A stretch of 64,000 nt of DNA, taken from Escherichia coli (GTDB lineage Bacteria > Pseudomonadota > Gammaproteobacteria > Enterobacterales > Enterobacteriaceae). The position numbers are program-made. Below, one piece after another: positions 25,401 through 28,400 of the stretch. Positions within the stretch are counted from its first letter, which is position 1, and each line of letters begins with the position of its first letter. The DNA lies in NCBI RefSeq assembly GCF_003334765.1, contig NZ_QOWT01000002.1. The stretch is one strand, 5' to 3'.

Positions 25401-28400
25401 CTACACCGTAAAATTTTGCAAACATGTTCATAAATAATAATGTATTACTAACATTTATTAATTGAATTATAATAAAAATCATATCATCAGAACAAAAAAT
25501 TTTATACCCCCCCTTTTTCTTAAGCCTTATTTGTTTAAAAATAACACACTTCTTCATTATTAATAATATTGCATAAACCCCTCTGTAGTTAGCAGTTAAA
25601 ATGCAAACAATGTAAATACTCACTTTGTAGTAAATTAAAATGCCCACGCCTGCAATGAATACGAGTAAAAATATTATTTCAAGTAGTACAAAATTGAGCG
25701 TTTTACCTGTAGCATCATAATATGAAGCAACCACTGGATAATATATATTTATTAACGATACAGCAATAAAAAAACATATTTTACCATATAACGTATCAAA
25801 CCCAACTACATAAAGCGTAGCCAATAATAAACAAAATATTATTAATAAGAATGGATACGTTATTTTCCTCACTGAATATAATAAATAATCAAGCAAATCA
25901 TTTTTTTCTAAATTTGATATCAGATTACGGAAGCTTGCAGTGATGCCGTTTTGTAAAACAGAAATAACGATTGCGTATGTTAGTAAATAAGAATAAATTC
26001 CAAAATCATACTCTGAATAGAATCGTATTATTATTGCAGGAATAAGCAAATTTAATAAAACAACACCCATCTTTAATAAAGATGAACTAAAAAGCAACTT
26101 TATCATAATAACTCACATTTACTTGTTAAGATGATATTGACTTTTTATAATTTAATAAGTCTAATATGAAGCCTGTATATTTTTTAGTTGCGGCCACATC
26201 TCCTCTAGATTCAACGTTTAACCGGACTACGGGTTCCGTATTAGAAGAACGTAAGTTAAAGCGCCATCCATTAAAAGTCATACTTATACCATCTGTACGA
26301 TCGATCTCAATTGCCTTATTTGCATAATAACTTTCAACCCGTGCGATAGCACATAATGGATCTTCCAACGTGCTATTAATTTCCCCACTTGCTGGAAAAG
26401 CTGCCATCCGGTCACGCACAAGTTCGCCCAGCGTTTTTCCTTTCAGACACACCAGTTCGGCTACCAGCAGCCACGGGATCATGCCGCTGTCGCAGTAAGC
26501 GAAATCACGGAAGTAATGGTGGGCGCTCATTTCGCCACCGTAGATGGCGTCTTCCTTGCGCATACGTTCTTTAATAAAGGCGTGTCCGGTTTTCGACATC
26601 ACCGGAGTGCCGCCTGCGGCAGTCACCACATCAACGGTGTTCCAGGAGAGACGTGGATCGTGGATGATCTTCGCGCCGGGATTTTTTTCGAGGAATGCTT
26701 CTGCCAGCAGGCCGACAATGTAGTAGCCCTCAATAAACTGCCCTTTTTCGTCAAACAGGAAACAGCGGTCAAAATCGCCATCAAAAGCAATGCCCATATC
26801 CGCGCCGTGTTTGATGACCGCATTGCGGGTGTCGTCGCGGCATTCCGGCAGCAGCGGGTTAGGAATACCGTTGGGGAAATTTCCGTCCGGCGTGTTGTGC
26901 ACTTTGATCAATTCCACGGGTGCGCCGAGGGCTTTAAAGCGGGCTTCGATGGCGTCAACTACCGGACCCGCTGCGCCGTTCCCGGAGTTGATCACCAGCT
27001 TGAGCGGCGTGAGGTTTTTGACGTTGATATAACCGAACAGGTGATCAACGTATGCATCACGCAGGTTGATTTGCTGATAGCGACCGCGTTTGGTTTCATC
27101 AACGGGAGGAAAGTCGTTGGCTTCTGCCAGGCGCTGGACATCGCGCAGTCCGGTATCGCCGCTGATCGGGCGAGCCCCTTCGCGCACCAGCTTCATGCCG
27201 TTGTAATCCATCGGATTATGGCTGGCGGTAACTTCAATGCCGCCATCCACGCCGAGATGGAACGTGGCGAAATAGATCTCTTCGGTGCCGGACATACCAA
27301 TATCCAGCACATCGACGCCCGCATCCTGTAAACCTTTCGCCAGCGCCAGTTTTAAGGTTTCGCTGGTGAGGCGGACATCACCGCCTAACACAATGGTTTT
27401 CGGTTTGAGAAATTCGCCATAAGCGCGACCAATGCGCCAGGCAATATCTTCATTCAATTCTTCGCCTAATTTCCCGCGAATATCGTAGGCTTTAAAGCAG
27501 GTTAATTTTTTCATTTATTAGTCATCTATTTTGTAACGTTCTTTTTGACGAACAATATCATCCTCACCTAAATAATCTCCTGAACTAACTTCAATAAGAT
27601 TGAGAGGAATTATACCTGGATTTTCAAGGCTATAAGTAGCACCCAGAGGAATATAAACGGATTCATTAGCAGTAACTAAGAAAGTTTTGTTATTTAACGT
27701 TACTTTTGCTGTACCTGAAAGGACAATCCAATGCTCTGAACGATGATGATGCATACGTAAGGATAGCCCTTCCCCTGGTTTAACGACAATCTTTTTGACC
27801 TTATATCGATCTCCCTGTTCTATAGCATCAAACTTTCCCCAAGGCCGAAACTCCTCGCGATGTGATAGATATTCAGAACGTTCTTGCATTTTAAGCATTT
27901 GAACAATTTTCTTAACATCCTGAACTTCGGATTTTTTTGAAACTAGAATTGCATCTTTCGTCTGAACAATAACAATATCTTCCACACCTACAGCGGCTAC
28001 TAAGGCTGACTCCGAATGAATATAATTATTTTTTGTATTATAGGTCAGGATATCACCTTTGCAAACGTCCCCTGTAGGGGTTTTATCACTAACGTCCCAC
28101 AATGATTGCCAAGATCCAACATCGTTCCAACCAATATCAACGGGATAGACTATACAACGCTTTGTTTTTTCCATTACTGCAAAATCAATTGATTCCGATG
28201 GACAATTTTGAAAAACATCTTTCGAAAGTCGTATAAAATCAAGATCATGGTAGGACGAAGAAATTGTTTTTTCACATATATCGTATATATCAGGTCTGTA
28301 TTTTTTTAACTCCTCTAAATATACTGATGCTTTGAACATAAACATCCCACTATTCCAGAGATATTTACCTGAGGAGATATACTCTTCAGCCCTTGAGCGA

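Follow-up and report, generated by a model that had tools for sequence, protein, structure and literature searches.

Exchange between the O-antigen and colanic-acid copies of the phosphomannomutase gene has been described before in Escherichia coli. The manB gene of serogroup O157 is reported to have been replaced or converted by cpsG (PMC3158064, citing Samuel et al. 2004). Of the 12 long-term evolution lines of E. coli B, 10 acquired deletions between manB and cpsG (PMC4173774). A deletion between the same two genes cost the O14 type strain its O-antigen cluster, according to PMC7685785, which cites Jensen and Reeves 2004. The same article, citing Feng 2005, gives the first seven genes as common to O86 and O127/O90.

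The manB gene of serogroup O86 described here carries a real recombination of this ordinary, well-known kind, both cpsG/manB conversion and cpsG-manB deletions (O157, O14, E. coli B) being already published. It leaves the current understanding unchanged and is mainly a worked example, at the resolution of a single tract, of the continual overwriting of O-antigen genes by their colanic-acid paralogues in natural E. coli.

The O86 manB gene and its neighbours

The window, meaning the whole stretch of 64,000 nucleotides that was analysed, contains two E. coli gene clusters, one for the O86 O antigen and one for colanic acid (wca/cps). Since the resident cpsG is present, manB and cpsG can be compared within the window. 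The genes concerned are the following.

26126..27514, minus strand: O-antigen manB (phosphomannomutase), a hybrid gene of 462 residues, identified by its open reading frame, Pfam, NCBIfam and motifs
43134..44504, minus strand: resident colanic-acid cpsG, 456 residues, donor of the conversion tract, in the same orientation as manB and about 17 kb distant
27518..28975, minus strand: O-antigen manC, an unconverted low-GC gene directly upstream of manB (GC3 0.241)
29016..31551, minus strand: another block of cps-like sequence within the O-antigen module of manB and manC, covering gmd, fcl and gmm up to about nt 447, with 95.0% identity to 47301-49836 of the colanic-acid cluster

The manB product contains, in order, the Pfam domains PF02878 (residues 7-130), PF02879 (153-258), PF02880 (263-372) and PF00408 (378-447), and scores 1016 bits against the NCBIfam model NF011943 (phosphomannomutase CpsG, cut-off 801), with the resident CpsG reaching 1055 bits. 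The motifs TASHNP (96), DGDFDR (245), GEMSAHH (327) and RSSNTEP (422) are all present, the last being conserved although it lies within the foreign tail described below. We take these, from P. aeruginosa PMM/PGM structures, to be the phosphoserine, Mg2+, sugar-binding and phosphate-binding loops. The product is predicted to be a phosphomannomutase of the CpsG/ManB subfamily of the alpha-D-phosphohexomutases. Phosphomannomutase converts mannose-6-P to mannose-1-P, the first committed step to GDP-mannose and GDP-L-fucose, and manB would be the O-antigen copy of this enzyme, serving the fucose-containing O86 repeat unit.

The PGAP/RefSeq name of manB is that of the colanic-acid CpsG, because the product name follows the subfamily model. 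This name is at odds with the locus, as a colanic-acid cpsG belongs to the wca operon between cpsB and wcaJ, where the gene at 43134-44504 is found, whereas manB is flanked by the O-antigen manC and the O86 wzx. The ManC protein has 59% amino-acid identity to CpsB, the nucleotide similarity of the two genes being patchy at 67-75%, and O86 manC is 99.5% identical to that of O127 and 83% identical to that of O128. The gmm gene turns divergent from its colanic-acid counterpart at about nt 447.

A recombination junction inside manB

Within manB, three regions can be distinguished.

26447..27514, minus strand: cpsG-type head, gene nt 1-1068, encoding domains I-III, delimited by near-identity to the resident cpsG
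26420..26446, minus strand: breakpoint interval, gene nt 1069-1095, codons 357-365, from the polymorphism pattern and the maximum chi-square scan
26126..26419, minus strand: foreign AT-rich tail, gene nt 1096-1389 (~290 bases), encoding domain IV and a C-terminal extension, from composition and divergence

The first-pass annotation described ManB as identical or nearly so to CpsG for about 375 residues and divergent thereafter. The protein fits this description: up to residue 381 the two products differ at position 74 alone (M74 in ManB, T74 in CpsG), and the first replacement of the tail is K382T, in INS[K/T]L, just where the first-pass annotation had put it. At the DNA level the head is not identical throughout, being about 95% identical to cpsG outside one 419-nt block. 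Nucleotides 1-633 contain 33 differences, 32 of them synonymous (pS 0.21), while nt 634-1052 contain none over 419 nt (pS about 0), a run equalled in 0 of 20000 permutations. The GC3 of the head is 0.61-0.64. Similarity to the cps locus begins exactly at the ATG, with none upstream, and the 5' end of the cps-like block is set at the ATG because the homology stops there.

At the other end, the final polymorphism common to manB and cpsG is at nt 1068, and a dense O86-specific run opens at nt 1095 and 1098. Third-position differences are dense from nt 1095 and replacements follow from nt 1145. The maximum chi-square scan gives 220 at nt 1112 (window position 26403), a value reached in none of 1000 permutations, the largest being 21.9. 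Mapping against ManB and CpsG of several strains places the junction at nt 1069-1095, near the end of Pfam domain III (residue 372), with domain IV starting at residue 378. The crossover within the gene, which the first-pass annotation had read as a recombination breakpoint, is therefore supported as an intragenic junction at which cpsG-type sequence gives way to foreign AT-rich DNA. The E. coli cpsG-type sequence takes up the codons from 1 to about 357-365, and the remainder is foreign, with a composition like that of manC and wzx.

The tail is as AT-rich as had been claimed: nt 1111-1386 have a GC content of 0.373 and a GC3 of 0.261, against 0.593 and 0.698 in the same part of cpsG, and the neighbouring manC (0.241) and wzx (0.259) have comparable GC3 values. 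Compared with cpsG, the tail is saturated at synonymous sites (pS 0.88) with a dN of 0.21, and 58 of 86 residues are identical in the two proteins.

Distribution of the head and the tail

The cps-like head was found in all eight O86 genome copies aligned (the window and seven others) and in one metagenome contig. The manB heads are scattered among the cpsG alleles without forming a clade of their own. Among 5426 complete E. coli genomes searched by blastn, 80 have the tail at 99% identity or more, and 78 of these have the whole O86 cluster; nothing fell between 80% and 99%, and the remaining matches were cpsG at 80% or less. At this level of identity the tail is confined to O86 clusters. It did not prove to be a common ManB C-terminus of unrelated clusters lacking an identical head, which would have refuted the reading of the first-pass annotation, since every copy aligned is joined to a cps-like head.

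Degenerate DNA patterns for the tail peptides [10 protein letters not shown] and MTFNGWRFN had no match in 100,044 species-representative genomes, and a metagenome search with the first pattern returned three contigs, all of them O86 clusters. In a protein search with the 84-residue tail, the best of the matches listed had 67-70% identity and were short partial cps-type tails, none with the O86-specific residues. No donor with an O86-like tail was thus found in the genomes, the metagenomes or among the protein matches listed.

A recent conversion tract in the head

The head contains a further tract specific to the strain of the window.

26600..26807, minus strand: cpsG-to-manB gene-conversion tract, gene nt 708-915, 208 bp at minimum and 419 bp at maximum (26463-26881)

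The window manB differs at 12 sites from the single manB head allele of the seven other O86 strains. These 12 sites are contiguous among 50 informative ones (M33 C12 M5), and all 12 match the cpsG of the window itself. Strain SW4848 has the same cpsG allele as the window and NMBU_W05E18 one that is a single base off, and the manB genes of both have the unconverted base at 12 of 12 tract sites. Between the window and NMBU_W05E18, 21 sites differ over the ~36 kb from his to cpsG, 12 of them inside the manB tract. A search of the 5426 complete E. coli genomes gave 5725 matching places in 4691 genomes, with no match to the window manB above 99.1%. In this strain 208-419 bp were recently copied from the resident cpsG into manB, and no other genome compared carries this copy. 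The head is thus itself a mosaic, in which a tract from the resident cpsG is set into an older allele of cps type that is fixed in O86.

Independent tracts from cps to the O-antigen copy are found in the sister O86 strains, in fcl of NMBU_W05E18 and in gmd-fcl of SW4848. Wherever the direction of transfer can be read, it is from cps to the O-antigen copy. The manB gene accordingly shows what is looked for in a gene-conversion hybrid, namely a second similar copy in the same orientation, a step in synonymous differences and GC3 with low-GC flanks, a tract visible at the allele level, and genes of like structure in further serogroups and hosts.

Hybrid manB genes in other serogroups and genera

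Six manB genes from five other serogroup clusters, those of O127 together with an O90/O127-type strain, O128, O173-type, ARS-C101 and O157, all combine a cps-like head with a serogroup-specific AT-rich end. Their junctions lie at about nt 1315-1320, compared with nt 1069-1095 in O86, which gives O86 the longest foreign tail. The O86 and O127 clusters are 97% identical from galF into manB and then diverge, and the homology of the O86 cluster with the O127, O128, ARS-C101 and SE11 clusters ends at window positions 26198-26208, within the 3' end of manB. A requirement of the foreign ManC for the foreign domain IV was considered and rejected, as O127 pairs its 99.5%-identical manC with a cps-type domain IV.

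Across genera, the GC3 of manC stays at 0.24-0.30, whereas that of manB is high and depends on the host (E. coli O157 0.44-0.70, Citrobacter ~0.58-0.72, Salmonella ~0.7-0.88). Following the relatives of ManC into other genera, we found the manB genes of Citrobacter, Salmonella and 'Xenorhabdus' converted almost to the end, and that of Pectobacterium, next to a related manC, unconverted with a low GC3 over its full length (0.20-0.36). The tail of this Pectobacterium protein is only 48% identical to the O86 tail, compared with 67% for CpsG, so the O86 tail need not share the history of manC. A block resembling the genes downstream of O86 manB occurs in 'Xenorhabdus sp. 12' with 72.7% identity over 9.6 kb.

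Origin of the hybrid gene

The hybrid most probably arose when a foreign low-GC GDP-fucose module was overwritten piecemeal by the colanic-acid cluster. The module (gmd-fcl-gmm-manC-manB) would have entered E. coli as low-GC DNA, and wherever a part resembled its co-oriented counterpart in the nearby colanic-acid cluster closely enough, it would have been overwritten by homologous recombination (gene conversion). Each tract would end at the limit of homology, which is the ATG on the 5' side and usually about nt 1315, or about nt 1069-1095 in O86, on the 3' side. The ancient event in manB probably brought cps sequence into a foreign gene. Conversion at ~65-70% identity is inefficient, so the first overwrite would have depended on stretches of local conservation or on another mechanism. 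The hybrid ManB is predicted to remain functional, because it keeps all four catalytic loops and its junction lies at the hinge between domains III and IV. The shared head may also act as a crossover site, given that the homology between serogroups ends in the 3' end of manB and that cpsG-manB deletions occur, and the tail may have arrived together with the O86-specific downstream genes.

The opposite history, in which manB is a duplicate of cpsG whose 3' end was replaced by a crossover inside the gene, with the tail arriving as part of an incoming block of tail-wzx-wbnI-wzy-GT2-GT11, is in our view unlikely but deserves weighing. In its favour, O86 and O127 diverge only once within manB (compare PMC7685785, citing Feng 2005), and it is consistent with a tail no closer to the low-GC manB of Pectobacterium than to CpsG and with the related downstream block in 'Xenorhabdus sp. 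12'. However, the cps duplicate would have had to land precisely after a foreign low-GC manC, at the ATG and without the cpsB-cpsG spacer. The O157 module is still low-GC except for manB, the Pectobacterium manB beside a related manC is low-GC throughout, and all transfers of readable direction run from cps to the O-antigen copy. The two histories are also not exclusive, as the tail could equally have been delivered by a crossover within a head that had been converted before.

Two other explanations fare far worse. A collapse of the two 1.1-kb near-repeats during assembly could in principle produce a hybrid or the 419-nt block; the window manB allele lacks an exact match in the 5426 complete genomes, and one metagenome contig (L015), possibly a chimera, joins the cpsB-cpsG spacer straight to a gene with a cps head and an O86 tail. 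For the hybrid such an artefact is rejected by the complete O86 genomes counted above that carry it, and the objection could touch only the tract, which is one clean interval with manB-type sites on either side and flanks collinear with the O86 genomes; overall we regard an artefact as extremely unlikely. The chance that no recombination took place, and that stronger purifying selection on domains I-III than on domain IV created the contrast, is close to nil. Domain IV is indeed the least conserved in the enzyme family, with a Pfam score of only 33 bits, but the contrast is seen at synonymous sites (pS 0-0.21 versus 0.88) and in GC3 (0.61-0.64 versus 0.26), a step which refutes purifying selection alone, and the permutations never reached the difference-free run of 419 nt.

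It seems improbable that domain IV of O86 manB, alone among the sampled serogroups, resisted homogenisation and owes its survival to selection, acting for instance on an altered enzyme property or a partner interaction, rather than to an accident of where one conversion tract ended. If true, nature would have carried out a domain-swap experiment on a phosphohexomutase in the O86 ManB chimera.

The shared head borders on the serogroup-specific block, a position in which it can mediate the exchange of O-antigen modules (O86 versus O127) or the loss of the whole cluster. In practical terms, manB heads make unreliable markers for O-typing or phylogeny, hybrid manB genes carry the RefSeq label 'colanic acid CpsG', and the 1.1-kb manB/cpsG repeat can cause mis-joins in short-read and metagenome assemblies.

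Comparison with known systems

The four-domain architecture and the catalytic loops of the manB product are those of the Xanthomonas phosphoglucomutase (PDB ID 5bmn/6nn2, phmmer E-value 7e-171) and the P. aeruginosa PMM/PGM (PDB ID 1k35, 2.5e-57), which serve as structural references only and are uninformative on the recombination history.

The O127/O90 and O128 clusters share with O86 the module gne-GT4-gmd-fcl-gmm-manC-manB and a homology that ends within the 3' end of manB, but their manB tails are other sequences and start at about nt 1315. Even with manC at 99.5% identity, the manB heads are 3-5% apart, suggesting that each has exchanged independently with the pool of cpsG alleles.

In E. 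coli B and O14, as in O86, the O-antigen cluster is flanked by a co-oriented pair of ~96%-identical repeats on which homologous recombination can act. The B and O14 events are reciprocal or deletional, with loss of the cluster, whereas the copying into O86 manB is non-reciprocal and both genes are kept. Contig L015 from the metagenomes is a possible O86 case of such a deletion.

The closest parallel is O157, where manB likewise follows a low-GC manC, shares over 95% identity with the resident cpsG, and has been proposed to result from gene conversion within the genome. In the O157 gene the cps-like sequence extends from nt 10 as far as about nt 1319, so that only the last ~50 nt are foreign. 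Its junction thus lies about 225 nt further 3' than in O86, and its domain IV is cps-type except for the last helix. In O157 manB alone is cps-like, with gmd and fcl unconverted and, like manC, at a GC3 of 0.24-0.30, whereas in O86 gmd and fcl are cps-like as well.

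O-antigen and colanic-acid clusters

The galF-to-gnd region is the O86 O-antigen cluster (99.9% identity), which is carried by 78 of 5426 complete E. coli genomes. RefSeq annotates its genes on the minus strand as galE, a GT4 glycosyltransferase, gmd, fcl, gmm, manC, "cpsG", O86 wzx, wbnI, O86 wzy, a GT2 glycosyltransferase, and an alpha-1,2-fucosyltransferase. The features discussed here are the following.

19671-21077, gnd, one end of the O86 O-antigen region
26126-27514, minus strand, manB, ORF of 462 aa
29016-31551, second cps-like block (gmd, fcl, and gmm up to ~nt 447), sharing 95% identity with 47301-49836 in the colanic-acid cluster
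33942-34835, galF, other end of the O86 O-antigen region
36231 (wcaM) through to wza, colanic-acid (cps) cluster, adjoining the O86 cluster
43134-44504, minus strand, true cpsG, in the colanic-acid cluster
44606-46042, cpsB, in the colanic-acid cluster

The manB and cpsG genes both lie inside the window, co-oriented and ~17 kb apart. The RefSeq name of the manB locus, "colanic acid biosynthesis phosphomannomutase CpsG," is assigned by the NCBIfam model for the CpsG/ManB subfamily and does not fit an O-antigen manB. PGAP calls the O-antigen gene "cpsG: colanic acid biosynthesis phosphomannomutase CpsG" in all genomes fetched, so these seem to hold two cpsG genes.

The O86 wzy gene (22875-24273) is split at a poly-G tract (23747-23756, minus strand) that reads G10 in the window and strain 1217KP and G9 at seven further O86 loci. 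Only G8 or G11 would yield an intact single 450-aa ORF, and each of the seven O86 genomes fetched has its wzy flagged as frameshifted by RefSeq. Candidate explanations of the split are phase variation by strand slippage, expression that depends on slippage, and a sequencing error in the homopolymer.

manB is a hybrid gene

Over residues 1 to 381, ManB differs from the resident CpsG by a single replacement (M74 in ManB, T74 in CpsG), and the first replacement in the tail, the AT-rich 3' part of the gene, is K382T, inside INS[K/T]L. At the nucleotide level, 33 differences (32 synonymous) separate manB from cpsG in nt 1-633 of the gene and none in nt 634-1052; from nt 1095 on, nearly all third codon positions differ, with amino acid replacements setting in from nt 1145. 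GC3 falls from 0.61-0.64 in the head, the cpsG-type 5' part, to 0.26 in the tail, compared with 0.70 for cpsG across the equivalent stretch, 0.24 for manC, and 0.26 for wzx. Measured against cpsG, synonymous divergence does not exceed 0.21 in the head and reaches saturation in the tail (pS 0.88). The optimum of a maximum chi-square scan for the junction is nt 1112 (window 26403), with a value of 220 that was matched in none of 1000 permutations (maximum, 21.9), and shared polymorphisms confine the crossover to nt 1069-1095 (window 26420-26446). The contrast described in the first-pass annotation, a head nearly identical to CpsG diverging into AT-rich sequence, is thus confirmed far past chance expectation, and its reading of manB as a recombinant with an intragenic breakpoint is supported.

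Pfam identifies four phosphohexomutase domains in ManB. Since domain III extends to residue 372 and domain IV begins at residue 378, the junction (codons 357 to 371) falls at the end of domain III, and the product consists of CpsG-type domains I to III and a foreign domain IV. None of the phosphoserine, metal, sugar, and phosphate loops is disrupted, including RSSNTEP, which lies within the foreign part. ManB scores above the curated NCBIfam cutoff for the CpsG/ManB subfamily, and among enzymes of solved structure it is closest to the PMM/PGM enzymes of Xanthomonas and Pseudomonas. O127 pairs this same manC with a domain IV of cps type, which contradicts the idea that the foreign ManC requires the foreign domain IV as a partner.

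Recent copying from cpsG into manB

Seven other O86 strains (six different complete genomes and strain 190693) share one allele of the manB head; the SW4848 copy carries a few further changes along with a frameshift, and its manB is also annotated as frameshifted. At 12 sites, all of them lying in nt 708-915, the window manB departs from the common O86 allele and matches its own cpsG. The 50 sites separating a typical O86 manB from this cpsG run, in order, as 33 manB-type, 12 cpsG-type, and 5 manB-type. The cpsG allele of SW4848 is that of the window and that of NMBU_W05E18 is one base off, and the manB genes of both strains have the unconverted base at all 12 sites, so the direction of transfer was from cpsG to manB.

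26600-26807 (minimum, 208 bp) to 26463-26881 (maximum, 419 bp), cpsG-to-manB tract

The tract causes two residue changes, I290S and S298T, and none of the complete genomes searched matched the window manB at >99.1%. From his to cpsG (~36 kb), the window and NMBU_W05E18 differ at 21 sites, 12 of them within the tract. Past approximately the cpsB-cpsG spacer (window ~44500-49000), they show 131 differences in ~5 kb, a sharp rise that places a strain-level recombination boundary beside cpsG.

Other O86 strains bear cps-type tracts of their own, one of ~100 bp in the fcl gene of NMBU_W05E18 (equivalent to window 29972-30074) and a long one in the gmd-fcl genes of SW4848. The tracts in these three strains show that copying from colanic-acid genes to their O-antigen paralogues is recurrent and current in O86 strains. 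The SW4848 regions concerned are 17425-19960 and 21462-22845, and the O-antigen Fcl protein of this strain is identical to its colanic-acid Fcl.

On a metagenome contig (SKEE01004477.1, 1-1900), the cpsB 3' end and cpsB-cpsG spacer are fused directly to a gene with a cps head and an O86 tail (switch point, nt 1069-1094), followed by O86 wzx. Such a fusion results either from a natural ~17-kb deletion between cpsG and manB, of the type known from O14 and the long-term evolution lines, or from chimeric assembly over the 1.1-kb repeat.

Origin of the hybrid

A manC search found clusters sharing this gene in O127 E2348/69, one O90/O127-type strain, ARS-C101, SE11 (O173-type wzx/wzy), and two O128 strains; an O157 strain was added separately to the manB comparison. 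In each of these clusters, manB joins a cps-like head to an AT-rich end that is specific to the serogroup. The cps-like part of all the non-O86 genes reaches ~nt 1315-1320, so that only the last ~50-60 nt differ, and O86 has the longest foreign remnant among the sampled genes (~290 nt). The hybrid build is general among the compared manB genes, and the junction position varies. The heads do not cluster together, being dispersed among cpsG alleles at 3-5% divergence, even beside 99.5%-identical manC. Homology of O86 to the O127, O128, ARS-C101, and SE11 clusters stops at window 26198-26208, within the manB 3' end, which agrees with a passage of PMC7685785 stating that O86 and O127/O90 have the first seven genes in common and differ downstream.

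The similarity to the cps locus begins exactly at the manB start codon, upstream of which the manC 3' end is unrelated to the cpsB-cpsG spacer. The manC product, encoded between the two cps-like blocks, is 59% identical to CpsB, and within the gmd/fcl block, stretches of 289 and 214 nt show no difference from the colanic-acid cluster. The gmm gene (28959-29462) is a hybrid like manB, in which cps-like sequence extends to ~nt 447 and gives way to divergent sequence in the overlap with the manC start.

ManC relatives were found in Citrobacter, Salmonella, "Xenorhabdus sp. 12," and Pectobacterium, with a manC GC3 of 0.25-0.30 at all four loci. The adjacent Pectobacterium manB has a GC3 of 0.20-0.36 over its full length, and elsewhere manB GC3 is high and host dependent (Citrobacter, ~0.58-0.72; Salmonella, ~0.7-0.88). 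In O157, gmd, fcl, and manC remain low-GC and manB alone is cps-like. These patterns, together with the junction at the ATG, favor a foreign low-GC module that would have entered and been overwritten piecemeal by resident colanic-acid genes, and they argue against a cps duplicate that afterwards gained a foreign end. Alternatively, the tail may have come with the O86-specific downstream genes via a crossover in an already homogenized head. The direction of the old event is only inferred, since the O86 tail is nearer to CpsG (67% identity) than to the Pectobacterium tail (48%), and searches of E. coli genomes, species-representative genomes, and metagenomes, as well as the matches listed from the protein collection, yielded no closer relative of the tail.

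The "Xenorhabdus sp. 12" cluster (GCA_033949405.1, VCDN01000012.1, 3418-12951) is 72.7% identical to O86 over 9.6 kb, with the O86-like order gmd-fcl-gmm-manC-manB-wzx-GT6-wzy-GT2-GT11. It encodes a 234-aa Glyco_transf_6 protein resembling WbnI and an intact 449-aa putative wzy product, and its manB body is high-GC3 and cps-like.

Comparison with known cases

The literature covered, which leaves out the primary O86 papers, yielded no description of the earlier O86 junction at the domain III/IV hinge or of the strain-specific tract. The O157 manB is described as unusually variable and >95% identical to cpsG, which was ascribed to gene conversion (Iguchi et al., PMC3158064); as cited there, the original O157 manB was replaced by the colanic-acid gene (Samuel et al. 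2004). Of 12 E. coli B long-term evolution populations, 10 lost the O-antigen region through manB-cpsG recombination (PMC4173774), and a passage of PMC7685785 traces the missing O-antigen cluster of the O14 type strain to manB/cpsG-type recombination. Considering these cases, the O86 hybrid is a further instance of a described process.
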